Both the position numbers and the translations under genes were made by a program. This document shows, one piece after another, positions 1 to 27,525 of a stretch of 56,586 nt of DNA. The notes beneath the pieces were generated by a model. That model was not told the DNA's origin, searched no databases, and worked only from the letters and a program-made list of their open reading frames with translations. Position 1 is the first letter of the stretch. Every line of letters begins with the position of its first letter. Origin of the DNA: a virus (taxonomy: Duplodnaviria > Caudoviricetes); the IMG/VR virus record IMGVR_UViG_3300031565_000038, positions 1 to 56,586 of that record. One strand, 5' to 3'.

Positions 1-1
1 T

Positions 2-127
2 CAATGCTTACTGTGTAGCTTCGTATTAAGTTTGTGCAAGTGTTTTAAAAATTTTTGCCCACGCACATCAGTTTTTTCAAAACTGTAAGGATTGCTGTAC
101 TGCATCATAGTTAGTTTTGTGGTTACT
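2..127. repeat. Terminal overlap, copy 1 (circular contig)
   Basis: 2..127 is identical to 56461..56586 (126 bp); the preceding base differs (t at 1, c at 56460). Confidence 0.95.
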
Positions 128-766
128 CCAAATTGCTTCCGTTGTTTTACTGTAAGCTCCCGATAAATCAATCATTGGTTTAAACGGTAGCCAGTCTGCC
201 TTTGTATTTTCACAAACAATTACTTGTCCATTTCTACTTTTACACCATTCTGCAAGTTTGATAAAATCAATATTTTTAGTACTTTCTCTATAATGCTCAC
301 CGCCAAATTGGTAAGGTGGGTCAATAAACCAAGTAGATTCTGTGTTTTCCAATTCTTCATAACTCCCGTTTATTATTGTCCAATGCTTTATTTTAAATAA
401 TTGTTTTGCTATTCTTTTTTTGTCACCTGATATATTGCTAAATTTTTGTACTATTTTTTGAGGCGATGCAATAGCTCCAGCAACCATAAAACCCATTAAT
501 AATTTTTCATCATCAGAAATATTAAAATCATCAATTGACTCTTTATATTTTGGTTCTGGTAAATTTAAAATATCTTTTTCCGTTGCTTTTTGTAGCCATT
601 TCCATATACGAATTATTTTTTCATATTTATCAACTATCGTAATATCATTCTGCCAATATTTCAAACTGTACCTTGCTGAACCTGCAAACGGTTCAATTAT
701 ATTTTTGTGCTTCGGTGGTGGATAGTAGTCCACAATCTTTGATTTACTTCCGTAATATGAAAACAT
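77..766 (-). CDS. DNA adenine methyltransferase (Dam/D12-like)
   Basis: YYGSK, EPFAGSA and DPPY motifs. Confidence 0.85.
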   Translation of the reverse strand: MFSYYGSKSKIVDYYPPPKHKNIIEPFAGSARYSLKYWQNDITIVDKYEKIIRIWKWLQKATEKDILNLPEPKYKESIDDFNISDDEKLLMGFMVAGAIASPQKIVQKFSNISGDKKRIAKQLFKIKHWTIINGSYEELENTESTWFIDPPYQFGGEHYRESTKNIDFIKLAEWCKSRNGQVIVCENTKADWLPFKPMIDLSGAYSKTTEAIWSNHKTNYDAVQQSLQF

Positions 767-836
767 AAAAAATCCTCCCTAAAAATTTTTAAAACAAGAA
801 CATTCGTACTCGTATCGAACTGTATCGGTTATTGTC

Positions 837-863
837 GCACTGGTCATATACCCAACGTTAGCA
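837..863 (+). repeat. attC-like right arm and R' box; pairs with 56442..56466 across the join
   Basis: gcactggtcatatacc is the near reverse complement of ggtatataaccaatgc (56451..56466); GTTAGCA at 857. Confidence 0.8.
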
Positions 864-869
864 GTAATG

Positions 870-1172
870 CTAAATAACCTCTAACCATGCTACTTTTTCT
901 TGTGTTAGCCAATTATGAGCAAATTTTGAAAGTGGGTAATTCTTTTCGGGTTCAGAATCACTATTTACATACAATCTTCCATGTTTACTTACAATTGTTC
1001 CTGTAATGTCTTTATCTCCACTTCTCATATATGAACGCTGATATGTTATAAATCCCTTTACTTTCATACCAACTTTCAAAATAATACCTTCTCTGTTAAT
1101 GAAAGCACTACTGCTAACAAGCGGTAATACGGCATTGCCTTGTGCTTCATGGATGATTTTTTCTGTGTTCAT
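870..1172 (-). CDS. Cassette hypothetical protein
   Basis: ORF; starts inside the attC-like loop. Confidence 0.7.
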   Translation of the reverse strand: MNTEKIIHEAQGNAVLPLVSSSAFINREGIILKVGMKVKGFITYQRSYMRSGDKDITGTIVSKHGRLYVNSDSEPEKNYPLSKFAHNWLTQEKVAWLEVI

Positions 1173-1244
1173 AATTTTGTTCTCGTATTTAAGTTATTAC
1201 TAATTTGATAGTTCGGCAACGACCGCATACCGCAGCCGTTAACT
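1112..1244 (+). repeat. attC-like site
   Basis: ctgcTAAC..cggtaatacgg / ccgcataccg..GTTaact; R'' matches cassette start gttagcagt at 857. Confidence 0.85.
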
Positions 1245-1575
1245 ACAATTGCCGCTTATGGCAATCATCTGTTAAGTATTTTCCGCATTCGCAAAATCTA
1301 TCATTTTCTTTAGACGGTGAGAAATAATGCGGCAACAGATAGTTAACAGCAGATATATTTAATGCTTGTTTTTCGTTCTCATAGAAACTTTTGTAATCAT
1401 CAACATCAAATTCAGCAAGTCCATAACAATCAATTGCTAAATCATCTACCTGTTGTTGTGTTAAACATATTGATGTTTTACCCATTAGCAACATTATACC
1501 ACCGTGTCTTGCTTGGTATATGTTGAAATCTCCTTTATAGGTTGTGTCTCCTATTTGATAGCTGAATTTTCCCAT
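1243..1575 (-). CDS. Cassette hypothetical protein (C-terminal CxC..CH)
   Basis: ORF; mostly within the attC loop. Confidence 0.7.
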   Translation of the reverse strand: MGKFSYQIGDTTYKGDFNIYQARHGGIMLLMGKTSICLTQQQVDDLAIDCYGLAEFDVDDYKSFYENEKQALNISAVNYLLPHYFSPSKENDRFCECGKYLTDDCHKRQL

Positions 1576-1631
1576 TTTATTAAAGTTTTTTGTTATTAAA
1601 TCGCACTAAATATATCTGCATCCCGTTATAG
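1341..1631 (+). repeat. attC-like site with long coding loop
   Basis: gcagatatatttaatgc / gcactaaatatatctgc arms; GTT at 1625. Confidence 0.85.
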
Positions 1632-1907
1632 TGAATTTCCCTCCCACACTACATTTGAAAATCTATCCATCCAATCTTTGGCTCTATTCATATTTTTTAT
1701 GTGCGTATTAACACGTTTTTTGGCTTCTTCAAACGTTTCACATATTACAGAACTTGGCTTAGTAAATCTACCAATCTGCATACTATTAATATTTAACCAT
1801 AAGCCAAAAATCTTATATTGTGCAGTAAAATAAGTTTCAGCAAATGGGTGCTGCCATTCTTTAATTCTATATTTAAGTTTCATATAATTTGTTTTGCCAC
1901 CGCTCAA
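1626..1907 (-). CDS. Cassette hypothetical protein
   Basis: ORF; stop codon is the TTA of the crossover. Confidence 0.7.
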   Translation of the reverse strand: MSGGKTNYMKLKYRIKEWQHPFAETYFTAQYKIFGLWLNINSMQIGRFTKPSSVICETFEEAKKRVNTHIKNMNRAKDWMDRFSNVVWEGNSL

Positions 1908-1914
1908 AAACTCA

Positions 1915-2010
1915 CTATAACAAAGTGTAAAGTTTATAAGCCAGTGAAGTTTATATTCATTTAATCAAAGTCCGTGCGTGGCTTACAAAACCTTACACAA
2001 ACCGTTAGCA
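1915..2010 (+). repeat. attC-like site
   Basis: cactaTAAC..gtgtaaagtttataagcca / tggcttacaaaaccttacac..GTTagca. Confidence 0.85.
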
Positions 2011-2016
2011 ACAACA

Positions 2017-2172
2017 CTACGTCAGTGCATTTTTCAAAGCCTGTGTTATCCAATAACGAACCATACCCGATTTATTGGAAGAGCCGAAAAACTCTTTCGA
2101 TACTTTTATCAAGTCTTGTTCTTCTTTTTCTGTAAGCGATAATGTAACCGCCTTTGTTTTTTCTTTTGCCAT
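2017..2172 (-). CDS. Small ribbon-helix-helix-like protein (51 aa, not in ORF track)
   Basis: MAKEKTKAVTLSLTEKEEQDLIKVSKEFFGSSNKSGMVRYWITQALKNALT; start overlaps the upstream stop. Confidence 0.6.
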   Translation of the reverse strand: MAKEKTKAVTLSLTEKEEQDLIKVSKEFFGSSNKSGMVRYWITQALKNALT

Positions 2173-2549
2173 TATTTTACGGTATTAATATCTACAGCTA
2201 AACCATCTTCTAACATTCCAAACACATCAAAATTATATTCAATAAGTCTTTTTACAACAACATAAGGTGCCCTATTATGCCAGTAAGCTCTTCCATATTC
2301 TAAATATTCATTATAGTAATATTCAAAGCTTGTAAAACCGAAAAAGTTATCTTTAAATACACCAATCTCACTACCAAAATCAACAGGTAATGTTTGCGTG
2401 TCTGTCAAAGGTCTTAAGATAGGTTTAAATCCTTTTTCTAAATGATAAGTTAAGTTTTCAGTTGTTAACTCTGTTTTCTTACCTACTGCATTTATAATAG
2501 ATAATGAGTGAGGCAAATAAGGTGCTACTTTTTCAAATTTAAGTTTCAT
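2172..2549 (-). CDS. Phage hypothetical protein
   Basis: ORF with PYLP..KPILRPL..FDVFG pattern; has its own promoter. Confidence 0.7.
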   Translation of the reverse strand: MKLKFEKVAPYLPHSLSIINAVGKKTELTTENLTYHLEKGFKPILRPLTDTQTLPVDFGSEIGVFKDNFFGFTSFEYYYNEYLEYGRAYWHNRAPYVVVKRLIEYNFDVFGMLEDGLAVDINTVK

Positions 2550-2586
2550 AATCGTATGTATTAAGTTTTAATGCGTTATTGCTCTA

Positions 2587-2617
2587 CAAAGATAGTAATT
2601 ATTTACTAATTACCAAA
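2587..2617 (-). promoter_or_regulatory. Bacteroidota sigma-A-type promoter inside a cassette
   Basis: TTTG-19 nt-TATCTTTG on the minus strand. Confidence 0.7.
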
Positions 2618-2646
2618 TAAATATTGCAATGATTTTACCGTGCAGT

Positions 2647-2745
2647 TGCTAACACGTTGTATATGTCAGTTTTGCCAATTGGTTTTTGTGCTTTGAATGA
2701 AGTATGTGCGTGGCAAAACCGAACACATACAACCATTCGTTATGC
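2647..2745 (+). repeat. attC-like site
   Basis: ttgcTAAC..gttgtatatgtcagttttgcca / tggcaaaaccgaacacatacaac..GTTatgc. Confidence 0.85.
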
Positions 2746-3096
2746 CCCATTAAAAAGGCGTTTAAACTTAGCTTGTATATATTTGTCCAATTCTTTCCGT
2801 AGGGCTTTCTTGTCAATACCCTTAGTGTTATAAAATCGAAAAATAATTGAGTTTCTTACTTTACCATCTTTTAAGTAGCAAGTGTCCATTCCTATTTCCC
2901 AATTGCAATCTGTAAATTGTACAATTATTTTCTTACAGTGTGCTTTTAACGAACCATTGTATGCTTCTTCATAGTAAGCCCTACTTTCTCGCTGGTTAAT
3001 AAGTAAGTCCTGCTCTTTTGCAGTCATTGTCTCTACATTTATTCCTATAATTGTCTGCATATCGTTAATTAACAACGGGGCATAACAACGCATCAT
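2740..3096 (-). CDS. Cassette hypothetical protein
   Basis: ORF; stop at crossover. Confidence 0.7.
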   Translation of the reverse strand: MMRCYAPLLINDMQTIIGINVETMTAKEQDLLINQRESRAYYEEAYNGSLKAHCKKIIVQFTDCNWEIGMDTCYLKDGKVRNSIIFRFYNTKGIDKKALRKELDKYIQAKFKRLFNGA

Positions 3097-3207
3097 AAAT
3101 AATAGCGGTGTTGTGCTTATCCGTAGGTTTATAATATTAATTTACTGCTTCTCATCTTTATAATTTAGTGCGGTTAATCCGCTACTATTCATATGCCAAC
3201 GTTACCA
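3080..3207 (+). repeat. attC-like site
   Basis: ggcaTAAC..gcatcataaataatagcgg / ccgctactattcatatgc..GTTacca. Confidence 0.85.
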
Positions 3208-3212
3208 CCCAT

Positions 3213-3497
3213 TTAAAGAAATTGCGGTGTAGGTATATCAAATCGCTTTTCTCGTGGCTCGCTATCATCGTAGTCACACTCTTTTAGTTTTGGTAAGTTA
3301 GGGTGCATTCCATCGTGTTTAATATGTTTATTGTATCGCTCGCAAATATGTGGGTACTTTTTACCATCTTCCACCTTGTCTTGTTCTCGCTCGGTTATGC
3401 TTAAATATTTGCATTTTCGGAAGCAAAAAACGGGTGGTAACAAAGGCTCATATTGCATAGCCTTGTCAGTTGTCGAAGTTTCATTCTTTTTTGTCAT
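3213..3497 (-). CDS. Cassette Cys-rich hypothetical protein
   Basis: ORF; start in attC loop. Confidence 0.7.
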   Translation of the reverse strand: MTKKNETSTTDKAMQYEPLLPPVFCFRKCKYLSITEREQDKVEDGKKYPHICERYNKHIKHDGMHPNLPKLKECDYDDSEPREKRFDIPTPQFL

Positions 3498-3564
3498 TTC
3501 AGTAAGTATTTAAAGTTTATATATTCAATCTAAAAGGCTACGCAACATAGCCAAACCGTTAGCA
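3435..3564 (+). repeat. attC-like site
   Basis: gtggTAAC..ggctcatattgcatagcc / ggctacgcaacatagcc..GTTagca. Confidence 0.85.
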
Positions 3565-3565
3565 C

Positions 3566-3736
3566 TTATTTACCTCGCTGTACGCTCGGTTTTTTCTTTC
3601 CCTTTAATTTTTTTATCCTTCTTCTTATATCCTTATCATCATACCAATCAATAATAACTGGCATTATCACAACCATAATGGCTATGAATACGTATGCCCC
3701 TATAATTACATATACTAAATTATCTTTGTTCATCAT
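3566..3736 (-). CDS. Small single-pass membrane protein (56 aa, not in ORF track)
   Basis: MMNKDNLVYVIIGAYVFIAIMVVIMPVIIDWYDD followed by a basic tail. Confidence 0.6.
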   Translation of the reverse strand: MMNKDNLVYVIIGAYVFIAIMVVIMPVIIDWYDDKDIRRRIKKLKGKKKPSVQRGK

Positions 3737-3842
3737 GTCAATATTTTTTTAAAAATTAAATGTTTCAATAAAAACCAATAAGTGCTAACGTCCTCTGTCT
3801 CGTTTCGCTGTAATTACCGCTCGGTAAACCCACTTCGTTAAG

Positions 3843-4135
3843 TGCTAACATAGTGTATAATGAATGACTTAGGCGAAACTCGTAATGAGGTTCTTGTTCT
3901 CAGTATTTAAAAGAAAATAAAATCTTTATTCCTTTTTTTCATACAAGCGGTGCAAATACTTTCGTCTTTTTTAACAATATATTTACCAGTTTCAACATTC
4001 CTAAATCCAGAATATCTAATATCTGCCTCAACACCGCAATCGGTACAATAATATTTTTTCTCTTTATTATCATTCATTATATTTTCTTTTAAATCCTTTC
4101 ACAATTCAACTCATTATACACAGAGGACGTTACCA
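3843..4135 (+). repeat. attC-like site with a gene in its loop
   Basis: gtgcTAAC..gtgtataatga / tcattatacac..GTTacca. Confidence 0.8.
3907..4077 (-). CDS. Small zinc-finger protein (56 aa, not in ORF track)
   Basis: MNDNKEKKYYCTDC...ICTACMKK; two CxxC pairs. Confidence 0.6.
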   Translation of the reverse strand: MNDNKEKKYYCTDCGVEADIRYSGFRNVETGKYIVKKDESICTACMKKRNKDFIFF

Positions 4136-4200
4136 ACAATTTGCCAGTAAAAAAGTGCATAAAACGAAACGTAAGTACTGGCAAACTGTACGCTTCGCTT

Positions 4201-4642
4201 TGGTAACAACTTGTATATTCTATGCGCTGTGCATAGAATCAGCGGATTCCTCCCCTATTGTCATTTCTTCTTTACAGTCTTTAAGCATATTTATAAAACT
4301 ATCTATACTTTCAACTTTGTTAAAAACAAAAACAAGTTCAGGTTGCATTTCATCAAAGCTTTCAACACTTGCTTTTTCAATAACGTTTATCGGTCTTGGT
4401 TCAGTTACTGTTTTCATAGCGAGTACTGTTTCGCCGTTTTCGCCTTTTTCAGATCCTAGCATCCAAACATCGCCAGTTCCCATTTCACAAACCATTACAT
4501 TTTTTGTTTTTCCGTAAGTTGCATTTTTTGTTATCATCTTGTTTTTGTTTTTGCCTACACACCGTATGCGAGCGGTTATACATTTATTTTAGTTTCGTGC
4601 GATCCGGTAAAGCGCACATAACATACAATTCGATCGTTAGCG
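4201..4642 (+). repeat. attC-like site enclosing a whole ORF
   Basis: tggTAAC..ttgtatattctatgcgct / agcgcacataacatacaa..GTTagcg. Confidence 0.75.
4220..4537 (-). CDS. Hypothetical protein in attC loop
   Basis: ORF. Confidence 0.7.
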   Translation of the reverse strand: MITKNATYGKTKNVMVCEMGTGDVWMLGSEKGENGETVLAMKTVTEPRPINVIEKASVESFDEMQPELVFVFNKVESIDSFINMLKDCKEEMTIGEESADSMHSA

Positions 4643-4861
4643 GTAATAAGTCACAGTATAATCTGTACCTTCTACTGCTAAATCACATCCTATTATTACT
4701 TTAGGTGGCTCAAATAATGGTGTGTGTTCTGGCATCTTAATATCACCATTTTCAAAGTGTTTTTGCATTTGTGCTATGCGGTTTAATTTACTACCGCTAA
4801 CAACAGGTAAATTGCATTGCTGCTTTCTACCATTAAATAAGTTTTTTATAAATTTCAACAT
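4637..4861 (-). CDS. Cassette hypothetical protein
   Basis: ORF; stop at crossover. Confidence 0.65.
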   Translation of the reverse strand: MLKFIKNLFNGRKQQCNLPVVSGSKLNRIAQMQKHFENGDIKMPEHTPLFEPPKVIIGCDLAVEGTDYTVTYYR

Positions 4862-4922
4862 CTGTTCTATTTTTTAAGTTTTTACTAAATTCACGCAACG
4901 CAACTTACCCAAACCGTTATCG
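4795..4922 (+). repeat. attC-like site
   Basis: cgcTAAC..ggtaaattgcattgc / gcaacgcaacttacc..GTTatcg. Confidence 0.85.
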
Positions 4923-4946
4923 ACAATGCCGCTGCGCTTGACGAAG

Positions 4947-5198
4947 TCAATCAGTTTGTTTAATCAAATACATCTTAAAACACTTACTACACCATTTATT
5001 ACCATAAACGTCCTCGCTATCAGATTGTGTACAATCACAAACCTCCTTTGACTTCTCATTGTCGATAACGTTCTCACTTTCATTTGTTGCTTGAGAATTA
5101 ATCTGAATGAAATTTATTGCTCTTACTTCATCAGATCGCATATTATCTACTCCTGGTAATCTTAAATACTTTTGGAATTCAATTAATTCTTTCTTCAT
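4947..5198 (-). CDS. Cassette hypothetical protein (C-terminal CxC..CxxC)
   Basis: ORF. Confidence 0.65.
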   Translation of the reverse strand: MKKELIEFQKYLRLPGVDNMRSDEVRAINFIQINSQATNESENVIDNEKSKEVCDCTQSDSEDVYGNKWCSKCFKMYLIKQTD

Positions 5199-5237
5199 TG
5201 TTTCAATTTTAAATTTGTACTACGCTTGCGACACAGT

Positions 5238-5322
5238 CGATAACACACTGTATATCGAAAGCAACTAAATGAATGACTTTCCGCAACTGCGTTGCTCACG
5301 TCATACAGTGAGAACGTTATGT
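5238..5322 (+). repeat. attC-like site
   Basis: cgaTAAC..cactgtat / atacagtg..GTTatgt. Confidence 0.8.
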
Positions 5323-5640
5323 GGCATTTAAGATATGATACTCGTTCGGAGTAAAATTCCATGCCACCGCACCATCTTTAAATTTGAGTTTGGCGCAATC
5401 AATATCTCTATCTCTGTAATGTTTTCCATTGTCATCATACTCACAATATCCAGTTTCTACAACCGTTGCAAGTTTTCCTTTATGCCTGTACAAATTATAC
5501 CTTGTGCAAACTGTTTGCCCAACCCTCGCACGAATTTTGTTTCTACCTATGAACCACCTGAAAGCGGATAAGTAAAAACGCCACATAACAATGTATATAG
5601 CAAATTTGCGAGCTTTTAAGAAAGTTTTTACTGTATTCAT
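5317..5640 (-). CDS. Cassette hypothetical protein
   Basis: ORF; start in loop, stop at crossover. Confidence 0.7.
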   Translation of the reverse strand: MNTVKTFLKARKFAIYIVMWRFYLSAFRWFIGRNKIRARVGQTVCTRYNLYRHKGKLATVVETGYCEYDDNGKHYRDRDIDCAKLKFKDGAVAWNFTPNEYHILNAT

Positions 5641-5708
5641 AATTTATCTCATTTAATTAAGTTTCTACTAATTTGGATGGCAAACTTGCCATATTCTCAA
5701 CGTTGTGT
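5583..5708 (+). repeat. attC-like site
   Basis: acaTAAC..atatagcaaatttgc / gcaaacttgccatat..GTTgtgt. Confidence 0.85.
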
Positions 5709-5852
5709 GTAATTTAAAGAACCCGTAGGCTTATTTTAGCACGTGCCTACGGGAGCTCGTCCGTGCATCCATTTTGTTGTTGTAGCAGGTAATTCGTCAA
5801 TTATCGCTATTTCTGGGAATGTGATTTTAAACCCAATATCTTAATAAACTAC

Positions 5853-5982
5853 ACACAACAATTTATATAATTAATAGCTGTGGTAGTGGTTATTTTAAAG
5901 AACTATCATTTATTAAGCCTATGCAAATATATGAAAATTATAGCATTTAATACGCTACTAATCATATAAGTAGCCGTTGTAG
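5853..5982 (+). repeat. attC-like site with a promoter motif in its loop
   Basis: acaCAAC..ttatataattaatagc / gctactaatcatataa..GTTgtag; TATATTTG (minus) at 5924..5931. Confidence 0.8.
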
Positions 5983-5992
5983 GCAATTTTGC

Positions 5993-6241
5993 TTAGTAAG
6001 TGCATTGCCCACCACATTTTCTACATTCACCTGTACCTGCTATCAAATCTTGCACACCATCGCATTCGCAAAACTGTTCGCTTTGCCCTACAACATTAGC
6101 TATACCCAATAATTTTAACTTAGCTTGGTGGTATGCTTCAAGGGCTTTCTCCGTATCGTTTACATCTGTTTGGAATTGTGGTGAATATTGCGTTGGCATA
6201 TTCGGTATTCCGTGTTCATCTAAAAATTCTTTTGCTGTCAT
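5993..6241 (-). CDS. Cassette hypothetical protein (C-terminal zinc ribbon)
   Basis: ORF; CxC..CxxC. Confidence 0.65.
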   Translation of the reverse strand: MTAKEFLDEHGIPNMPTQYSPQFQTDVNDTEKALEAYHQAKLKLLGIANVVGQSEQFCECDGVQDLIAGTGECRKCGGQCTY

Positions 6242-6293
6242 TTTTTCGTTTTTAAGTCGTTAAAATTACTGTACATAGCCTTAGCCGTTGTAC
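6088..6293 (+). repeat. attC-like site
   Basis: ctaCAAC..gctatacccaataattttaac / gttaaaattactgtacatagc..GTTgtac. Confidence 0.8.
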
Positions 6294-6402
6294 TCAATAT
6301 TGCCCCTTAAATCCGTACTCTTTAAGAACATCAGCGAGTAACTTTGATTTTTCTTCTGGGATTGGTCCCCACCGCACTTTGGTTTTTGCAAAACCATTTG
6401 GG

Positions 6403-6489
6403 TTAAGAGCAATGCCCTGTACTACCTCCACAATGTCCCGCCATTGCTTCAATAAAGTTTGCAACTTTTCTCAAAACTTTCGTGTACAT
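6403..6489 (-). CDS. Putative RiPP precursor peptide (28 aa, not in ORF track)
   Basis: MYTKVLRKVANFIEAMAGHCGGSTGHCS; ATG 4 nt after the rSAM stop. Confidence 0.7.
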   Translation of the reverse strand: MYTKVLRKVANFIEAMAGHCGGSTGHCS

Positions 6490-6493
6490 AATT

Positions 6494-7363
6494 TTACCTC
6501 CATTGTTTAGTTAAACATCCATTTTCATATATAACACCGTATTTATTTGGTGCTGTTTTGTTAAATAATTTATAAGCAACTTTTACACCGTCCATAAATG
6601 AAGCTGTTAGCGTTTCCTCACACATAAAACACGAGCGTTTTAAAAGTAGTGGCGTTTTCATTTCTTTTAGCTCCTGTATTTTTGCAGTTTCTAAATACTT
6701 TTGACAACCACTATAAAAAGGTGTCCCTAGTTTAATACCAAAGGTTTTTTCAAACGAAACAAAGTATTCTTTTCCGTGTTGTATTTCGGAAAGTTTAATC
6801 GAATCAAATCCCATTTTATCGTAATGCAATAAACAGGCTGTAATATCTTCTTTCGTGTACAGATAAGGTTTCACAATATTTAGGTTAATTCTAATCTTTT
6901 CTTTATGTGGCAACGAAGCATAAAAAGCCTGTCTATCATATTTTGAAGGTACTTTCCTTATTTCGTCTGCAATTTCTTCTTTATAATGTTGTACCGAAAG
7001 GTTTATGCCGTCAATTATTTCTAAAAGTTCGGTAAACAAATCAAACCTATCACTACATATTTTTGGTATTGCAGTTGTTACAAATATTTTGAGTTTTGTT
7101 TTTTCTCTAACTTGTTTTACACAGTCCAAGAGTTCCTGTAAATAAAGGCAAGGTTCACCACCTAAAAACAATACATCATCGTATCCGTTTTGGTTTTCAA
7201 CTATGGTGTTTACTATCGCTTGTACATCGGGTTTCTTTATTCCAAAACCTTCATACTTTAAATCAATGCAATGCGAACACTTATTATCACAAGCACTTGT
7301 AAAATGTATGTCAAATGAGTTATACAACCCATCACAACAGTTTTTAATAAAAATATTTGCCAT
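6494..7363 (-). CDS. Radical SAM protein (putative peptide maturase)
   Basis: CDNKCSHC (CX3CX2C) and GGEP motifs. Confidence 0.9.
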   Translation of the reverse strand: MANIFIKNCCDGLYNSFDIHFTSACDNKCSHCIDLKYEGFGIKKPDVQAIVNTIVENQNGYDDVLFLGGEPCLYLQELLDCVKQVREKTKLKIFVTTAIPKICSDRFDLFTELLEIIDGINLSVQHYKEEIADEIRKVPSKYDRQAFYASLPHKEKIRINLNIVKPYLYTKEDITACLLHYDKMGFDSIKLSEIQHGKEYFVSFEKTFGIKLGTPFYSGCQKYLETAKIQELKEMKTPLLLKRSCFMCEETLTASFMDGVKVAYKLFNKTAPNKYGVIYENGCLTKQWR

Positions 7364-7428
7364 CGCTTCGCTGTTTTTAATTACTATTTTAGTTTTTCAA
7401 TTTAAGTTTATCAGTTAAAACCGCCAGC

Positions 7429-7557
7429 CACTAACACGTGGTATAAAACAAAGCGGTTTTAGTGGTACTCGAAGTTGTCTGCCACGTGCCAAGTTTATTG
7501 TAACTTGATAATTCAGTCCTCGCAGTCCGCTTCGATTTCATACCACCATCGTTAACG
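7429..7557 (+). repeat. attC-like site
   Basis: cacTAAC..gtggtataaaacaaagcgg / ccgcttcgatttcataccac..GTTaacg. Confidence 0.8.
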
Positions 7558-7590
7558 AAAATGTTGCAAGCAACCGCAAAAAACGAGTTG

Positions 7591-7803
7591 TTAATACCAG
7601 TAATCACAGTTACCATGTTCGCAAGCATTAAGAGTACAGTTACCATTTGGTTCATCCGAATGACAACTCTTTTCTTTTTGCTCATTTTCGTTAACGTTTC
7701 GAGCTTCTCTTTGATGCTTTAAAATTTTTCTAATCTTACGTAGTTCAATTGAAGTAACTATAAATAGTATTCCAGCTAAACAGTTAATAATAATTTGTGT
7801 CAT
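7591..7803 (-). CDS. Cassette protein with N-terminal TM helix and Cys-rich tail
   Basis: ORF. Confidence 0.6.
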   Translation of the reverse strand: MTQIIINCLAGILFIVTSIELRKIRKILKHQREARNVNENEQKEKSCHSDEPNGNCTLNACEHGNCDYWY

Positions 7804-7864
7804 AATAAAAAATTTTATTTGTTAATACTTATTTAATTTCTTTTTCCTGATCTTGCAACACTTT

Positions 7865-7953
7865 CGCTAACAAAGCGTATAGTGAAAGCATCAAATCGAA
7901 TGGTTCTCCGCAACGCTTCGCATTGCTCTCACCATACGCTCGAAACGTTATAA
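7865..7953 (+). repeat. attC-like site
   Basis: cgcTAAC..agcgtatagtga / tcaccatacgct..GTTataa. Confidence 0.8.
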
Positions 7954-8193
7954 AACAGTTTGCGAAGGAAAGTATTGGCATTTTTCGCATTCTTGATTAT
8001 CAAATGGGCATCCAAGTATATCGAATTGCGGATGATCGCAAACCGATTTTATAACAGCAGGTATAACACAGTTTTTTGCTGCGTATTCTGCCATTAAGTT
8101 AGCTACTGCATTTAATGTAAAGTTGGTTCCAGTTCCGTACCCTTCATTATCCAAGTACTGTTTTGCATTTTCAATGTCTTCTTTTGTGTACAT
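7948..8193 (-). CDS. Cassette hypothetical protein
   Basis: ORF; stop at crossover. Confidence 0.65.
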   Translation of the reverse strand: MYTKEDIENAKQYLDNEGYGTGTNFTLNAVANLMAEYAAKNCVIPAVIKSVCDHPQFDILGCPFDNQECEKCQYFPSQTVL

Positions 8194-8255
8194 TTTATTT
8201 AAGTTTTAGTTATTAATCCGCAAAAAACCGATGTCATACCTGCGTTCCGTTATAG
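8049..8255 (+). repeat. attC-like site
   Basis: ttaTAAC..gcaggtataaca / tgtcatacctgc..GTTatag. Confidence 0.85.
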
Positions 8256-8624
8256 GGCATTTAAAAACTCGCCCCTCCACATCTTTTTAATTAATTTATC
8301 GTTTACTTGTTTTACCTCATATTTTCGCATCAAAGGGAATCTTTCACTTGCCGAAAGTGATTGCCACCAATCTTTCCATTCGTTTTTAAAAATAACGCTT
8401 GGAATGTAATCTTGCTCATAATCACAATTAAGGCACTTTAAAATAACCTTACCATTTACCTCATTGCCTACAAGTGGCAAATGTTGGCTATCATTTCCAC
8501 AAGTTAATTCGTGCCAATTATCATTATGTTGGAAAATTGCTATTTTGCTTAATATTTCTTTATTGTTCATAATCTCATTTATTTTGATTTGTTGGTATGC
8601 GTAGTTTCGTGCTTTCAAATGCAA
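8250..8624 (-). CDS. Cassette hypothetical protein (likely start 8570)
   Basis: ORF; stop at crossover; left attC arm not found. Confidence 0.65.
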   Translation of the reverse strand: MHLKARNYAYQQIKINEIMNNKEILSKIAIFQHNDNWHELTCGNDSQHLPLVGNEVNGKVILKCLNCDYEQDYIPSVIFKNEWKDWWQSLSASERFPLMRKYEVKQVNDKLIKKMWRGEFLNAL

Positions 8625-8645
8625 CCGACCACATATACTTTTTCG

Positions 8646-9392
8646 TTAACGGCAAGCAAAAGAAGCGTCCGTGCGTTCAAATTCGTACACAAAAACCCAA
8701 GGATTAGAATTGAGATTATCAAATCCGTTAATTTTTGCCCATAATGAACGATAAGAAGCAATTGCCGGATGAACACCACCTGTTTGCAAATGGCTTCCAT
8801 CATCCCAAAATCCTACCATTGGTTCAACATACGATTTATAGCGGGTTTGGCACATTTGTTGCCATTTTTCGATACCTTCTGCAATTGCATCTTCCTTTGT
8901 AATATCTTCGAGCCGTTCAATTCTAATTTTTGTAAGTATCAAGAAAATACGGCAAGCATTTTTAGTCATAAATATTGAAGGTTTCCAAGTCCAATGTTCG
9001 TAATCCTCCCACGGTTGCCCATCAGCTTTATAAACATATCCGTAGTTTTCATCAGTTGGGTGTAAGTTCAATACTTTTGTATGTTGCCATGTTTCACGCA
9101 CCCAAAGTATGTCACCTACTTTGTATTTCATTTTAAACAATGAGCCTCCATATTGTCCGTTTTCGTGAACTCCTCTAACTTCAAATTGGTCTTTATCTGT
9201 AAATGCAGAGAATCCAATTTTAGGGTCTGTTATTTTTTTTGAGTATTTAACTATCCGTCTGGTTTGTGTCTTTTCTCCTCTCAATATCGCCTGAACCATT
9301 GGAGTTGAGAAAAGAATAGGTTTACAATTGCCAGCCGTTAACACGCCATATACTCCATTGGCGTGTTCGTTGGTATTCGTAGTTTCTGTCAT
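8646..9392 (-). CDS. ASCH/PUA-like phage protein
   Basis: PILFSTPMVQAILRGEKTQTRR, GDILWVRETW, WKPSIFM and NPWVFVYEF motifs. Confidence 0.8.
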   Translation of the reverse strand: MTETTNTNEHANGVYGVLTAGNCKPILFSTPMVQAILRGEKTQTRRIVKYSKKITDPKIGFSAFTDKDQFEVRGVHENGQYGGSLFKMKYKVGDILWVRETWQHTKVLNLHPTDENYGYVYKADGQPWEDYEHWTWKPSIFMTKNACRIFLILTKIRIERLEDITKEDAIAEGIEKWQQMCQTRYKSYVEPMVGFWDDGSHLQTGGVHPAIASYRSLWAKINGFDNLNSNPWVFVYEFERTDASFACR

Positions 9393-9466
9393 TTTATAAA
9401 GTTTTTAGTAAATTGATAAATTTGTTCGTTCTAATCGCCAACGTAAGCATATGGCAACCGTTATCT
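9336..9466 (+). repeat. attC-like site
   Basis: cgtTAAC..gccatatactccattggcg / cgccaacgtaagcatatggc..GTTatct. Confidence 0.85.
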
Positions 9467-9471
9467 TCCAT

Positions 9472-9852
9472 TTAAGGAAGACTAATCACATTAAGTATTG
9501 CAGGTATCCAATTCGCAGTAATTCCTTTTTTATTATTTATCGAGTATGTGAGCAAAGTTCCGCAGCTTATAAATGTCGAATGCTTAATAAAAGTAGGTGA
9601 AAAAGGAATTTCGCTTGGGGTTTCCTTTTCGCAAATATCTGGTCGTAAATCTAACAGGTGTTTAACTCTATCCCATTCTTTTTGTGTTTTGACAATATAG
9701 CATTCATTAAAATCTAATGAGCGAAAAACGGAAGATAACAAAGGCTCATATTGCATAGCCTTGTTTTCTGGTAAATTACTCATGTTAAATGTTGCTACAC
9801 TTTTGCCATGTTCATATGCTTTTAGGTATTCTTTCTTTGTTAAATCGCTCAT
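9472..9852 (-). CDS. Cassette hypothetical protein
   Basis: ORF; shares KAMQYEPLL with 3213..3497. Confidence 0.65.
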   Translation of the reverse strand: MSDLTKKEYLKAYEHGKSVATFNMSNLPENKAMQYEPLLSSVFRSLDFNECYIVKTQKEWDRVKHLLDLRPDICEKETPSEIPFSPTFIKHSTFISCGTLLTYSINNKKGITANWIPAILNVISLP

Positions 9853-9933
9853 TACTTAGTATTTTTTAAGGTTATTACTTTCTATTTATTTTGGTGGGTA
9901 ATTCACGCACTACCCATACGTACACCGTTAGGT
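9733..9933 (+). repeat. Chimeric attC-like site
   Basis: Left arm identical to 3438..3466; right arm not complementary; GTT at 9927. Confidence 0.7.
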
Positions 9934-10188
9934 GGCATTTAAAGAAATGTACTTGGTATCTATTTCAAGTTGCTGTATTTCAGTTAAGCCATTACCTTTT
10001 GCTCTGTTTTTATTGAACTTCAAGCAATCATAACACACCTTTACTTCATTTACCGTTAAGGCTATTTTGTTATCGTTAGAACAAACGCCACATAACAATG
10101 TGTCAACAATAATTACTGGCTTTTCCGGTATGTCAAATAATTTTTTTTGTATAATCATTACATTAATTTTGAAAGGTTTATATCTCAA
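9928..10188 (-). CDS. Cassette hypothetical protein
   Basis: ORF; two CxxC; stop at crossover. Confidence 0.6.
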   Translation of the reverse strand: MRYKPFKINVMIIQKKLFDIPEKPVIIVDTLLCGVCSNDNKIALTVNEVKVCYDCLKFNKNRAKGNGLTEIQQLEIDTKYISLNAT

Positions 10189-10221
10189 ATTCCGTAACTA
10201 TTGTTACACTATCCGTTAGCA
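10090..10221 (+). repeat. attC-like site
   Basis: acaTAAC..gtgtcaacaataattac / gtaactattgttacac..GTTagca. Confidence 0.85.
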
Positions 10222-10222
10222 C

Positions 10223-10507
10223 TTAAACGAGCGTCCCAGTTACATCAGCTTCAATTTTGAAAATTGCTTGTATTCTATTTTTTGAACCATCTTTTTCGCA
10301 TTCTGAAACAAACGATTCTAATTCAATATCTGAATTAATACCATAAGCTCCGTTTAAATCTAAATCACCATCGGTAATTACAATATACTTTGTATTTTCT
10401 CTCACCGAATTATCTCTAAATTTACACCCATTGTATTCCATTTTGATAAAAATTAACTGGCTATAACACACAATAAAAAATATATAGGCGTTTGTACTAT
10501 TATTCAA
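10223..10507 (-). CDS. Cassette hypothetical protein (likely start 10441)
   Basis: ORF. Confidence 0.6.
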   Translation of the reverse strand: MNNSTNAYIFFIVCYSQLIFIKMEYNGCKFRDNSVRENTKYIVITDGDLDLNGAYGINSDIELESFVSECEKDGSKNRIQAIFKIEADVTGTLV

Positions 10508-10664
10508 GGTTTGTGCCCCTCTTTGGCTTTTTTAAAGCCATTAGGTATTCACTACATATAAACTCAATCATTCCGCTAAAACTGCGTCTTTGTTTTGTAG
10601 CTTCTTTCTTAATCTCAGCGTTTATTTCGCTATCAATCGTTAAACTTTCTCTGTCCTTTGCCAT
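10500..10664 (-). CDS. Ribbon-helix-helix (CopG/Arc-like) regulator (54 aa, not in ORF track)
   Basis: MAKDRESLTIDSEINAEIKKEATKQRRSFSGMIEFICSEYL. Confidence 0.65.
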   Translation of the reverse strand: MAKDRESLTIDSEINAEIKKEATKQRRSFSGMIEFICSEYLMALKKPKRGTNLE

Positions 10665-11736: not shown

Positions 11737-11853
11737 GTATTATTAAGTATTTTTTTCAACAATATTTTTCCAACGCTCAAAATATTTTAACATTTATAAT
11801 CCTAATTAAATTCTGTGGTAACTTGATAAAAGCAACCGTATCATATTTAAACG

Positions 11854-12075
11854 TTATAACCCATTTTTACTTTTGTACAGTTCAATCAGTTCTGCAAAAG
11901 ATATTACAGGTACTCCAAAATCTCCTTCTTCTGCAAACCCATGTACTTCAATAAATTTTGTTGCTTCAATCACTTCTATTTTTGCTTCTTTAACAAGCCA
12001 TATCCAAAATGGGGTTATAACACTACCTATATGTAATGCCTTTCCGTTTTTATCAAATATTTCTAAGTTATCCAT
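11854..12075 (-). CDS. Cassette hypothetical protein
   Basis: ORF; start in loop, stop at crossover. Confidence 0.65.
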   Translation of the reverse strand: MDNLEIFDKNGKALHIGSVITPFWIWLVKEAKIEVIEATKFIEVHGFAEEGDFGVPVISFAELIELYKSKNGL

Positions 12076-12153
12076 TGTTTAAGTTTTTTAAGTTAGTATA
12101 GTAATTTATTTAAGTCGGCGCTACACATAGACAAACCGTTAGCAAACATTTGA

Positions 12154-13580: not shown

Positions 13581-13637
13581 TTATCTGTAGTTTATATTTT
13601 TTTCGTTATGCAAAAAGTACTGTTATACGGTAGTTGT
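13581..13637 (+). repeat. Array-head element copy 1 (attI-like or RHH operator)
   Basis: 54/57 identical to 55871..55927; both end at the G|TT of the first cassette. Confidence 0.75.
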
Positions 13638-13645
13638 GTGTAATA

Positions 13646-13939
13646 CTACTTACTAAGCTCAATTAAGCAATTCTTTAGTATTTCAAACGCATCCTCTTGC
13701 GCTGCTTCTGTTGTGGAAAATCCAGCCCCACGCTCACTCGGTTCATGCAAGCTTTCTTCTAACACTTTCAATGCTTTTTCGGCAGCATCTTCTATTGCGT
13801 TATCCACACGCTCTTGCTCTTCAATTTCTTCCATAGCTATTCCATAACCTTCCCAGTTATCTACTCCAGCGCATTCCAACGCACGCATTTTAGATTCAAT
13901 CAACTCTAATTCTTTTAATCTACTTTTTGAAATTTCCAT
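13646..13939 (-). CDS. Cassette hypothetical protein
   Basis: ORF; LExAGVDNWEGY motif. Confidence 0.75.
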   Translation of the reverse strand: MEISKSRLKELELIESKMRALECAGVDNWEGYGIAMEEIEEQERVDNAIEDAAEKALKVLEESLHEPSERGAGFSTTEAAQEDAFEILKNCLIELSK

Positions 13940-14177
13940 ATCTATATTTTTTGTGGTTTAATAAACCGTACTACACACAACAATTTGTATAATTCAGTTG
14001 GCGTGTGTGCTTAGTCCAACTTTTGCACTTTTAATTTAGTTTATATCGGTTCGACAATTTAGTGCTATTAATGCCAACCGAAATCATACAATGGTCGTTA
14101 TAGCGAATTATTTTTTAACCGCCTTATTGCAAGCATATATCCTTCGTGTAAGAAAATTTCGCATTTATGGTATATTC

Positions 14178-18579: not shown

Positions 18580-18784
18580 ACATAAGGCATTTAGAATCGC
18601 TTTTTAACGGCTCTCTTCGCCATACAACATTAAATATAAATAGTAAAAATTTACTACGTTTTGCGCTTCTTTCAATATCTCTGCATAGTCTCAACCAAGC
18701 TATGTTCAGTTCCATACATGCGCCTTGTAGTGTTTCTAATCTCATTAGTAGCCTTTGCTGTAAATTGTAATATGGTCTTTTCAT
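18515..18784 (-). CDS. Cassette hypothetical protein
   Basis: ORF; start in loop. Confidence 0.65.
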   Translation of the reverse strand: MKRPYYNLQQRLLMRLETLQGACMELNIAWLRLCRDIERSAKRSKFLLFIFNVVWRREPLKSDSKCLMCEKQKPNDGHSCCEDCGGIAF

Positions 18785-18836
18785 GTCCGTAAATTTTTAC
18801 TATTCATATTATTCCCGTTACAGGCAATAAAAATTA

Positions 18837-19034
18837 CTACTCTTTCTGTTTTAATTCAAGCAGTTCTTTTTCAAGTGTTTCTATTATTTGTTTAACCTCG
18901 TAACTTATCTGCTCCATCATACTACCTTCACCTTCATAATAGGTGAAGTTATGTTTAGTTTTTGGGTGATATAGTTTGCGTATAGCATTTAATGCTGTTG
19001 CTTTTTTATATTGTTTTAATTCCTCTGTTGTCAT
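18837..19034 (-). CDS. Cassette hypothetical protein
   Basis: ORF. Confidence 0.65.
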   Translation of the reverse strand: MTTEELKQYKKATALNAIRKLYHPKTKHNFTYYEGEGSMMEQISYEVKQIIETLEKELLELKQKE

Positions 19035-19156
19035 AACCGTAATTTTAAAAGCCTATAACAATTTGTAAAAATAATAGCCAATATAGGCGTTTGTACTATT
19101 ATTCAAGGTTTGTGGTTTGGCTACTATTCTTACAAGTTAACATTAGCCTTCATTGA

Positions 19157-19441
19157 TTAACACACCGTCTGCACCTCGCCTTTTCTCCATGACACAGCTC
19201 TTTTAAATGCAGAGTCTCGTAGCGATTTTAAAGAAAGTTTATCTATTAATTCTTTAGCTTGCAATTCACTTATAGTTACTTTTATTTTTATAATTGGAGA
19301 ATCTTTACGCAAATAGCGTATTAATCTATATTTATCTCCGTATTGGGAAATCAACCATAAGTGATTCCATTCTGATATAAGATTGTCAATATTAACAAGA
19401 CAATTACCAGTTTCTTTAAAATCTTCAATAATTTTTTTCAT
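19157..19441 (-). CDS. Cassette hypothetical protein
   Basis: ORF. Confidence 0.65.
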   Translation of the reverse strand: MKKIIEDFKETGNCLVNIDNLISEWNHLWLISQYGDKYRLIRYLRKDSPIIKIKVTISELQAKELIDKLSLKSLRDSAFKRAVSWRKGEVQTVC

Positions 19442-19480
19442 ATGTTTTTAAATTTTTTCGTTATTCAAAATCTTCCATGC

Positions 19481-19822
19481 TCATCCGTCTTTTTCCGTTC
19501 TTATCTCTCTCGAATACTCCAAAATCGGCTCGTTAAACACATATCCAATCAATCTTGCTCGATAACCTTTATCCAATAAATCACGTATTGGTATTGCGGT
19601 CCCATAGCTAATATATATTTTATTTACAGCTTTTTTGTTTACAGTTACTATTCCAAACTTGGCAATTATTCCGAAATAAATAATTCGCCAAAATCCATAT
19701 ATCACTAACCATTTTAATTTGAATTTCTCACCGTGCAGAGAGAAAAAACGAGGCATGGCAATAGATAAAATCCATTGCTTAAACTGTGATAATTTTGAAA
19801 TTATATGTTTTCTTATTTTCAT
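19481..19822 (-). CDS. Cassette hypothetical protein
   Basis: ORF; start in a degenerate loop. Confidence 0.6.
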   Translation of the reverse strand: MKIRKHIISKLSQFKQWILSIAMPRFFSLHGEKFKLKWLVIYGFWRIIYFGIIAKFGIVTVNKKAVNKIYISYGTAIPIRDLLDKGYRARLIGYVFNEPILEYSREIRTEKDG

Positions 19823-19878
19823 TTTACTAAGTTTTTGAAATTATAACTATTAAATAGCAACGTATCTTATCAGGGCTG

Positions 19879-20328
19879 TTATATAAAATTAGCAATCGTT
19901 TTTTCAAAATCCTCCATGCTTATCCAGTGCAGAATATGTTTGAGCATGGCATCAATGCACATACTGTATATCCTTGAAAATTCCACATCGTCCATCGACT
20001 TGAAGGATATAGAACGAGCTTGTAAATGTTCTTTTCCTGTCATATCGTAAATAACATCAGCTTCTCCTATCATTATCATTAGTTTTTTTCTAAGGTAATT
20101 GACATTCCTCAACCTGTCATATTCCTCTTCTTCAGGGAAAAGATATATGCATGCGTTCAGGAATGCAAAAAACTTTCTGTGAAAATCAACATTCCTTTCT
20201 TTCCATATATCAATATTGAGACAATCCCCATCATTTAATTTCAGGCTTTTTTTAAAACCGTCAAATTCAACGAAATCAACAGAATCACGGAAAGCGTCAA
20301 TATTTTTTATGGTGCATTTTAGTTCCAT
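19879..20328 (-). CDS. DUF1367-like protein
   Basis: RNVDFHRKFFAFL and SISFKSMD motifs. Confidence 0.75.
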   Translation of the reverse strand: MELKCTIKNIDAFRDSVDFVEFDGFKKSLKLNDGDCLNIDIWKERNVDFHRKFFAFLNACIYLFPEEEEYDRLRNVNYLRKKLMIMIGEADVIYDMTGKEHLQARSISFKSMDDVEFSRIYSMCIDAMLKHILHWISMEDFEKTIANFI

Positions 20329-23274: not shown

Positions 23275-23312
23275 CTTGTTTTAAATTTTGTCGTTAATAA
23301 TCCGTACTAACC

Positions 23313-26733: not shown

Positions 26734-26829
26734 AATGTTTTGTTTAAAATTTATGTAAAGGTAAGGTTTTTTTGTTTGAAAATCAAATATTGGTATCTGT
26801 GGTGCATATATTCAGTAGTTACCACACAT

Positions 26830-27123: not shown

Positions 27124-27181
27124 AATTTCTGTTCTTTTAAATCGTTAAAAATCAAACCATACCCAAACCGTTAGCCACCAT

Positions 27182-27505: not shown

Positions 27506-27525
27506 ACACCCGACATTAGGGCGAA

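Follow-up and report, generated by a model that had tools for sequence, protein, structure and literature searches.

The locus described here raises the question of how a phage genome comes to carry, in its early half, a long run of small accessory genes, each bracketed by its own inverted repeat, and whether these repeats are sites at which the genes are exchanged. The window, by which we mean the whole stretch of DNA analyzed, is the complete virus record IMGVR_UViG_3300031565_000038 (56,586 bases; 100% complete by CheckV), in which all real genes lie on the minus strand, referred to below as the gene strand. An earlier note on this DNA had read the region as an integron-like cassette system without an integrase. 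Our results support an integron-type cassette reading: homologous arrays are found in Bacteroidota, with a tyrosine recombinase gene at their attI-side end, and units are replaced and reordered at YAAC|G between the sister Polaribacter phages P12002S and P12002L. Combined, these observations indicate that the region is probably an array of mobile integron-type gene cassettes which depends on a recombinase supplied in trans.

On the gene strand, the small genes are each preceded by a long imperfect hairpin, termed a module, typically 112–119 nt in length, and are bracketed by unit-specific inverted repeats, or arms, of the form GTTR-N6.. / ..N6-YAAC. Inverted GTTR...YAAC pairs lying within 1.6 kb of each other number 22 at a score ≥10 and 17 at a score ≥11, compared with means of 2.26 (maximum 6) and 0.69 (maximum 3), respectively, in 100 dinucleotide shuffles performed genome-wide, and GTTA is the top end-tetramer among all 256 tested. 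The three pairs quoted in the earlier note are located at 857/1105, 3201/3428 and 9460/9726. That note had also proposed that the ends of a unit match each other and not those of the neighboring unit, and had named complementarity no better than in other pairings as a reason to abandon the idea. Complementarity within a unit in fact far exceeds that between units: in a comparison of 30 units, each defined between successive junctions, 19 scored ≥9 with their own partner, compared with 9 of 870 other pairings. Arms of 14–15 nt contain a single mismatch at position 11, always a G in the inner arm opposite a T in the outer arm. In the cassettes encoding open reading frames (ORFs) 3213..3497 and 9472..9852, which have a common N-terminal KAMQYEPLL and hairpin, the arms differ and the outer arms carry compensating changes.

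Read along the gene strand, a junction consists of the outer arm ending in YAAC, a G (29 of 33 junctions), a 4-nt spacer and an 18–22-nt L'' segment containing TATG, while the downstream half of the site consists of L', complementary to L'', 2–3 nt ending in T (24 of 25 sites) and then GTTR and the inner arm. It corresponds to the bottom strand of an attC site, in which an R box, an unpaired spacer, an L box and a variable loop follow one another. In the window and the Polaribacter phages the spacing between YAAC and GTT has a step-like distribution, with clusters at 47–51, 71–85, 112–121 and 185–197 nt, and it extends to 277, 428 or 994 nt where the loop holds most or all of a gene. The loop usually contains an A/T-rich box preceding the ATG, the start codon and the first 15–75 codons, and sometimes an entire gene. 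Phage genes lie on the folding strand, so that the cassette site is at their 5' end with the start codon inside or after the site and, where the start codon is in the loop, the ORF reads through L' and the inner arm. Each phage cassette appears to carry its own expression signals within its site. A shared pre-ATG box, TAGTANNAACTTWA, has five matches compared with 1.6 expected, a number reached in 2 of 100 shuffles, and is too weak to be called a promoter.

Structural conservation was evaluated with 18 modules (11 from the window, five from P12002S, one from P12002L and one from LR756500) aligned with MAFFT. RNAalifold identified 20 pairs in this alignment, 16 of which have compensatory changes, with G.U present in 16 of the 18 modules at two positions. 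A covariance model (CM) built from the alignment gave 26 window matches at E≤1, 25 of them on the minus strand, the sole plus-strand match having an E of 0.94; the 23 matches at E<0.1 are confined to the minus strand and span 1115 to 27518. These counts derive from filters-off cmsearch runs, as default Infernal filters dropped most of these A/T-rich hairpins, including the training sequences, and standard screens may miss this site class through the same default filtering. In the 26 matches, whose alignment was fitted to the model, 92.3% of cells are paired, compared with 62.9% after shuffling, and covariation is 0.741, compared with 0.188, a value which none of 500 shuffles reached. No match to Rfam was obtained at the gathering score in the window or at E≤1 in four module-bearing bacterial loci.

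The imperfect hairpin ending in G|TT that had been proposed for the units is indeed present, the L''/L' duplex being −17.9 kcal/mol or lower in 20 of the 23 units from 10215 to 55923; the CM, too, finds 23 modules in the window. At a criterion of −18 kcal/mol, 22 duplexes are detected on the gene strand, compared with 0.5 in 10 shuffles. When the strands were folded separately under DNA energy parameters, bottom-strand folding having been suggested in advance as a check, 20 of 23 modules had the lower energy on the minus strand (mean −12.4 kcal/mol, compared with −10.2 kcal/mol for the plus strand). Bulged bases in the modules were seen by eye, and the strand asymmetry is carried by conserved G.T wobbles, which favor the fold of this strand alone; one follows the AAC, two are in the L stem and one is at position 11 of the arms. 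We infer that these conserved wobbles would set the choice of strand.

Approximately 22 units had been thought to run continuously across the join between the two ends of the record, in good agreement with the 24 junctions, delimiting 23 units, that we counted from 10215 to 55923. The last 12 bases (56575–56586) and first 13 bases (1–13) together form an L' half which pairs with 833–856, producing a duplex of −27.0 kcal/mol across the join. As this half straddles both record ends, the main array is continuous across the join and the linear record represents a permuted circle or a concatemer unit. Further junctions occur at 11853, 12138, 13633, 14097, 18817, ∼19142, ∼19878, 23313, 23607, 26818, 27170 and 27515, close to those listed earlier. 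At both array ends (13633 and 55923) the last YAAC is followed by an identical 52-nt non-module sequence which contains, on the plus strand, the direct repeats GTTATAC-N10-GTTATAC-GGTA|GTTG, and two exact 24-nt copies are present in the window compared with 0 expected. From its sequence and position, this element is a candidate attI-like docking site, the two copies of which would mark the array ends. On the gene strand, the copy at 13582–13632 directly follows the cassette with the gp5.9-like gene (13646–13939).

Mobility of the units was investigated in related phages. A large-terminase search of genome contigs detected no relative, and a small-terminase search of IMG/VR returned 36 loci with at most 47% identity, relatives too distant for breakpoint analysis, and P12002S and P12002L were therefore used instead. 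In blastn against phage records, only two window modules were matched, 2638–2743 with 87% identity to the 462-kb uncultured phage LR756500.1 and 3080–3200 with 75% identity to Polaribacter phage P12002S; the same junctions, modules and arms are present in both of these phages. All 18 CM matches in P12002S and all 11 in P12002L are on the gene (minus) strand. Comparison of related phages had been named beforehand as a test of the cassette idea, and the two Polaribacter phages do differ at G|TT. Their common blocks are 98–99.9% identical while gene content differs. The cassette encoding methyltransferase A (MTase-A) is 99.2% identical between them, with identity running from the G after TAAC to CAAC and different neighbors on both sides, and it is located after MTase-B in P12002S and before MTase-B in P12002L. 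Further replacements likewise have an end at YAAC|, and altogether six cassette boundary sites in this comparison fall exactly at YAAC|G, consistent with AA|C exchange. Since the module moves with the gene that follows it on the same strand, the exchange point is at the outer arm, equivalent to G|TT on the plus strand of the window.

Single window cassettes are also matched at ∼90–95% identity in the assembled contigs of four metagenome runs (1231–1625, 5315–5704 and 11854–12141), the matches stopping at the junctions; a groundwater contig, for example, covers 5315–5704 and no more of the window. As short contigs also break at repeats, these matches are only a hint. Candidate joints in the contigs have short sides (18–81 nt) which may be repeats or belong to other organisms, and nothing is concluded from them.

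Homologous sites are widespread in bacterial genomes. A pattern representing one module subfamily was found at 119 loci in the genome collection, nearly all in Bacteroidota and many at contig ends, and five pattern-positive genomes contain 38, at least 95, 11, 78 and 18 CM matches. Among 151 genomes drawn evenly across Bacteroidota, 33 had at least one module match, a lower bound as filters were stricter and few candidates were scored per genome. Some chromosomal arrays comprise dozens of single-ORF cassettes. In the bacterial arrays that were fetched, 58 module matches occur in 11 loci, in one orientation and every 0.5–1.5 kb. Own arms score ≥9 in 41 of 47 bacterial units, compared with 34 of 2,162 other pairings, and all of the 14–15-nt arms have the G.T at position 11. 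Bacterial ORFs are on the strand opposite the module in 45 of 47 units, which is the canonical integron arrangement (top-strand ORF with its site 3' of it, the bottom strand being the one that folds). By sequence and structure, the phage sites are homologous to the repeats located between the single-ORF cassettes of these arrays. One ∼125-nt module family is near-identical across many genera, often with a conserved right flank, which suggests a recently spreading cassette or other mobile element that may use the same site.

In each of six arrays (6/6), a tyrosine recombinase gene, in either orientation, lies 0.1–2.7 kb beyond the same end, which in the top-strand sense is the attI side. Four of the array-adjacent recombinases have NF040815, 'site-specific tyrosine recombinase/integron integrase', as their best model, with 213.6–237.4 bits (cut-off 220). 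A recombinase homologue is present within 8 kb in only 4 of the 119 pattern loci, a figure which fits long arrays having one enzyme gene together with clusters having none. The phage itself lacks a recombinase gene. The absence of a tyrosine recombinase reported earlier was confirmed by Pfam, in which none of the 98 window ORFs matched a recombinase family, by a six-frame PF00589 search of the window and by tblastn of the window with an array-associated Bacteroidota recombinase.

In the mechanism that we consider best supported, the two arms would join in the circularized cassette into a 10–20-bp R stem, which would account for arms that pair within their unit and not with the next one. The enzyme would likely be the Xer/IntI-like tyrosine recombinase of Bacteroidota array ends, acting in trans during infection, and exchange at YAA|C would add, remove and reorder units. 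A comparable case is the CTX phage attachment site, at which a host tyrosine recombinase of the Xer family acts in trans on a hairpin formed from one phage DNA strand. The likeness extends to the array-adjacent recombinases, which score highest against an Xer-type model; CTX, however, integrates the whole phage at dif and is not known to build cassette arrays.

Several observations weigh against this interpretation. The phage has no recombinase, and the action of a host enzyme on its sites is something that we infer. The units had been described in terms of the canonical integron consensus, inverse core RYYYAAC and core GTTRRRY, of which only the GTTR and YAAC part is conserved here; only 2 of 33 junctions, and no inner arm out of 25, agree with the full GTTRRRY. 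In the main array, arms or duplex are missing from three of the 23 units (7551->6287, 8645->8249 and 3837->3558). The search for IntI-like genes in Bacteroidota, suggested beforehand, yielded a tyrosine recombinase at array ends that departs from IntI: the array-adjacent recombinases score 190–216 bits on TIGR02249, their second-best model, matched in two stretches and below its cut-off of 265, and the one compared with the IntI structure 2a3v has 24 residues where IntI has 67, the IntI insert being missing. When 67 early-region ORFs were compared by tblastn with ∼1 Mb of bacterial and phage loci, none matched at 1e-4 (best 0.032), so that the fetched loci give no direct sign of exchange with host arrays. 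Two P12002S/L deletions crossed elsewhere than at the core, one in a TGTAT box 8–12 nt beyond the AAC and one in the A/T-rich pre-ATG box; the 342-bp deletion (48359–48700 in P12002S, corresponding to 47432–47445 in P12002L) has its crossover in such a repeated A/T-rich box just upstream of start codons. Short-homology recombination therefore also reshapes the arrays. Finally, reading of the ORFs through L' and the inner arm means that coding constraint could account for some of the conservation, and the position of the phage genes on the folding strand makes an RNA function possible for the phage.

This last point leads to an alternative that we regard as unlikely, in which the modules are intergenic expression units composed of a hairpin and a promoter, the arms close an mRNA panhandle that affects stability, processing or translation control, and genes are shuffled incidentally, by short-homology recombination at the conserved boxes, much as T4-type phages do with their promoter-stem-loop cassettes. 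The phage stems do all form on the strand of the mRNA, G.U pairs included; the loops contain the start codons and A/T-rich pre-ATG boxes, the two deletions described above crossed in conserved boxes and not at AAC, and the phage encodes a YqaJ-type exonuclease and NinG. An RNA-only version of this alternative, with mRNA panhandles and RNase III-type processing, was indeed our initial favorite, and was dropped once the wobble strand of the bacterial cassettes proved to be non-coding. In 45 of 47 bacterial cassettes mRNA folding cannot account for the strand bias; since the ORFs there are opposite the folding strand, the wobble bias belongs to the DNA strand rather than to an mRNA, and RNA function is ranked low. 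Furthermore, a monocistronic mRNA started at a promoter in the loop would begin downstream of L'' and so lack it, the six phage boundaries fall exactly at YAAC|G, where only 4–5 conserved bases are common, recombinase genes lie at array ends, and the shared pre-ATG box is weak. The promoter-early-stem-loop (PeSL) cassettes of T4-type phages are promoter and hairpin units which flank small accessory genes in a hyperplastic region, are linked to gene shuffling and presumably operate by homologous recombination at the repeats. The phage modules resemble them in being repeated hairpin units that flank small accessory genes, but have three features that PeSLs are not known to possess: an AAC/GTT crossover core, closing arms specific to each unit, and homologous arrays in host chromosomes that are linked to a recombinase gene.

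Quite improbable, in our estimation, is that the modules are non-autonomous repeats, resembling miniature inverted-repeat transposable elements (MITEs) or the repetitive extragenic palindromic (REP) and enterobacterial repetitive intergenic consensus (ERIC) sequences, which transpose as ∼125-nt imperfect palindromes between genes in Bacteroidota and their phages. ERIC and REP repeats are imperfect palindromes of ∼125 nt which occur in many copies per genome, scattered and conserved across genera, and tens to ∼100 module copies per bacterial genome, many at contig ends, the high conservation of one sequence family across genera and the scarcity of recombinase genes near pattern loci would all be in keeping with such an origin. 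Insertion of a repeat leaves unexplained, however, why unit-specific complementary arms surround the ORFs, why arrays are strictly in one orientation with one ORF per unit and why a module and the adjacent gene travel as one unit in P12002S/L, and no target-site duplications were seen by eye in the module flanks inspected. Unlike ERIC, REP or MITE sequences, the modules form one-orientation arrays, delimit single-ORF units with their own arms, and belong to arrays that end at a recombinase gene. The chance that the pattern is a compositional artefact is practically negligible. Short inverted repeats are common in this A/T-rich genome (97 pairs), yet 17 arm pairs were found compared with 0.69 in dinucleotide shuffles; this difference, the duplex shuffles and the strong covariation refute an artefact.

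These sites have much in common with the attC sites and cassettes of integrons, for example sedentary chromosomal ones such as the Vibrio super-integron. In both, a single strand folds into a hairpin made up of an R box that ends in AAC/GTT, a spacer left unpaired, an L box and a loop of variable length; both have a crossover at G|TT, a cassette start complementary to its own inverse core, and one-orientation arrays with mostly one ORF per cassette, the bacterial homologues having a recombinase gene at the attI side. Unlike in integron attC, the core departs from RRRY beyond GTTR, each cassette has an R stem of its own that measures 10–20 bp in place of 7 bp, typical sites are 112–119 nt, loops reach 190–994 nt and can hold a gene, and conserved G.T wobbles are the visible strand-asymmetric feature. 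Whereas integron cassettes consist of a promoterless top-strand ORF followed by attC, phage genes lie on the folding strand, the bacterial homologues being canonical in this respect. The window also differs from a complete integron in having no integrase, and the array recombinase departs from IntI both in its TIGR02249 score and, in the one compared, in the missing insert. With 23 structure-defined sites and no integrase, the window may represent a cluster of attC sites lacking an integrase (CALIN), its sites being defined by our own CM.

Phage-borne integron sites are, in principle, already known. In PMC9892861 (Front Microbiol 2023), a screen of 10,705 phage genomes detected 17 CALINs, in virulent phages; two attC sites flank methyltransferase genes in Polaribacter phage P12002L, and IntI1 was found to recombine one of them, P12002L_attC2, with attI1 when its bottom strand was supplied, the junctions lying at G|TT. 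P12002L carries the same modules as the window; two sites are reported for it in that study, whereas here at least 23 sites organize the whole early region. The sections of the study consulted do not describe own-unit arms, wobbles, inverted gene orientation, cassette-exact differences between P12002S and P12002L or chromosomal arrays in Bacteroidota. In the IntegronFinder 2.0 preprint, Bacteroidetes are reported to have only In0 elements and one complete integron (Salinibacter). A review counts Bacteroidota among integron-bearing phyla (PMC8618304). No description of Bacteroidota or Flavobacteriia cassette arrays of this kind was found in the literature searched.

The units of the window are collected in Table 1. 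Among the genes within the cassettes are putative anti-defense-type genes, including those for a D12 adenine methyltransferase and a T7 gp5.9-like RecBCD inhibitor; a radical-SAM gene and one for an ASCH-like protein are also present. In Pfam searches of the 98 ORFs, the window encodes siphovirus structural proteins, YqaJ exonuclease, NinG, a DnaB-like helicase, the D12 methyltransferase and two radical-SAM proteins. ORF 11041–11679, situated in the early region between cassette junctions and far from the structural module, matches phrog_1491 'tail fiber protein' (1.1e-56). No tRNA or tmRNA was found in the window.

Table 1. Cassettes, modules and attI-like sites of the window. Arm scores are given for the outer/inner pair of the same unit; duplex denotes L''/L' pairing; bits and E are from the covariance model (CM).
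Feature	Coordinates	Strand	Details
attI-like terminal site of main array (candidate)	55872..55922	-	52-nt non-module sequence directly after last YAAC
Cassette 1, adjoining attI-like site	55923..56419	-	arms 55923-55932/56084-56093, score 10; ORF 56120..56386 in loop; duplex −19.8 kcal/mol, loop 326 nt
Cassette 2, first part (continues at 1-856)	56420..56586	-	arms 56420-56428/56440-56448, score 9
Cassette 2, second part	1..856	-	D12 adenine methyltransferase 77..766 (PF02086) in 994-nt loop; L'' ∼833-856
Cassette, ORF 870..1172	857..1237	-	arms 857-871/1104-1118, score 12; module 1115-1241, CM 78.4 bits
Cassette, ORF 1243..1575, mostly in 277-nt loop	1238..1624	-	L''/L' 1603-1619/1349-1365, 17 nt, 94%; duplex −25.0 kcal/mol; arm score 8
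Cassette, ORF 1626..1883	1625..2003	-	arms 1625-1638/1908-1921, score 11; module 1918-2007, CM 53.7 bits
Two-gene cassette, ORFs 2017..2172 and 2172..2549	2004..2738	-	arms 2004-2012/2646-2654, score 9; module 2650-2742, CM 41.8 bits
Cassette, ORF 2740..3096	2739..3200	-	arms 2739-2748/3077-3086, score 10; module 3083-3204, CM 93.4 bits
Cassette, ORF 3213..3497	3201..3557	-	arms 3201-3214/3428-3441 (latter in coding sequence), score 11; module 3438-3561, CM 79.7 bits; duplex −31.8 kcal/mol
Two short or nested units, 3558-3836 and 3837-4128	3558..4128	-	ORFs 3566..3736, 3907..4077; arms 3558-3570/3777-3789, score 13; nested repeat; partly resolved
Cassette, ORF 4220..4537, wholly in 428-nt loop	4129..4635	-	arms 4129-4136/4200-4207, score 8; duplex −21.1 kcal/mol
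Cassette, ORF 4637..4861	4636..4915	-	arms 4636-4649/4788-4801, score 11; module 4798-4919, CM 80.5 bits
Cassette, ORF 4947..5198	4916..5315	-	arms 4916-4928 with 5057-5069 (score 13) or 5236-5244 (score 9); module 5241-5319, CM 24.1 bits, E 0.042; duplex −23.9 kcal/mol
Cassette, ORF 5317..5640	5316..5701	-	arms 5316-5329/5576-5589, score 11; module 5586-5705, CM 72.3 bits
Unit without ORF of ≥40 amino acids	5702..5975	-	arms 5702-5716/5845-5859, score 12; module 5856-5979, CM 87.9 bits
Cassette, ORF 5993..6241	5976..6286	-	arms 5976-5983/6087-6094, score 8; module 6091-6290 (192-nt loop class), E 0.062; duplex −22.9 kcal/mol
Radical-SAM unit, ORF 6494..7363 (PF04055)	6287..7550	-	module 7432-7554, CM 87.5 bits; no own-unit arms found, arm score 3
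Cassette, ORFs 7591..7803 and 7829..7990	7551..7946	-	20-nt arms 7551-7570/7852-7871, 90%, score 14; module 7868-7950; duplex −30.7 kcal/mol
Cassette, ORF 7948..8193	7947..8248	-	arms 7947-7955/8047-8055; module 8052-8252 (193-nt loop), CM 40 bits; duplex −34.9 kcal/mol
Unit, ORF 8250..8570	8249..8644	-	no L duplex found
Unit, ASCH-like ORF 8646..9392	8645..9459	-	arms 8645-8653/9334-9342, score 9; module 9339-9463, CM 108.2 bits
Cassette, ORF 9472..9852	9460..9926	-	arms 9460-9473/9726-9739, score 11; L duplex weak, −12.4 kcal/mol
Cassette, ORF 9928..10158, uppermost junction of main array	9927..10218	-	arms 9927-9940/10083-10096, score 8; module 10093-10218, CM 78.8 bits
Isolated cassette, ORF 11854..12075	11853..12141	-	arms 11853-11862/12012-12021, score 10; module 12018-12141, CM 68.8 bits
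Second copy of attI-like terminal site (candidate)	13582..13632	-	aligned with 55872-55922
Cassette, T7 gp5.9-like RecBCD inhibitor 13646..13939 (PF25708, 1.4e-13)	13633..14100	-	arms 13633-13646/13968-13981, score 11; module 13978-14100, CM 88.6 bits
Three further modules, 18625-18820, 19056-19145 and 19756-19881	18625..19881	-	E 0.032, 4e-06 and 0.0017; no arms recognized
Cassette 23313-23606, 21-nt arms	23218..23610	-	arm score 12; module 23498-23610, CM 58 bits; weaker module 23218-23316, E 0.35
Two cassettes, 26818-27169 (ORF 26830..27123) and 27170-27514 (ORF 27182..27505)	26818..27518	-	arm scores 12 and 11; modules 26976-27173 and 27395-27518, CM 43.2 and 64.6 bits

What appears to be new here is the extent of the array and the anatomy of its sites. 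The same applies to cassettes that are inverted and self-expressing, to the finding that sister phages differ by exact cassettes, and to the connection with arrays that are widespread in Bacteroidota and have a recombinase other than IntI. A broader proposal, which we advance tentatively and at slightly less than an even chance, is that Bacteroidota and their phages share a distinct and as yet uncatalogued integron-like system with ∼125-nt sites, long cassette-specific R stems, a strand choice coded by G.T wobbles and an Xer-like recombinase without the IntI insert, in which virulent phages lacking the enzyme would use that of the host and swap self-expressing anti-defense cassettes, whose sites would contain both promoter and start codon, into two attI-like docking sites, the early region being continuously re-dealt during infection.

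Integrons have been thought rare or absent in Bacteroidota, and phage attC clusters have been regarded as occasional curiosities. Here, the whole early region of a phage is built of cassettes and homologous sites occur in about a fifth of the Bacteroidota genomes sampled, and phage and host thus appear to share one plug-in system for accessory genes. As P12002S, P12002L and their Polaribacter host are in culture, testable material is available. If the system is active, it would provide a concrete mechanism for the fast turnover of phage accessory and anti-defense genes in an ecologically dominant phylum, and would represent a second integron-like lineage, one that differs in its recombinase and in the way its strand is selected.

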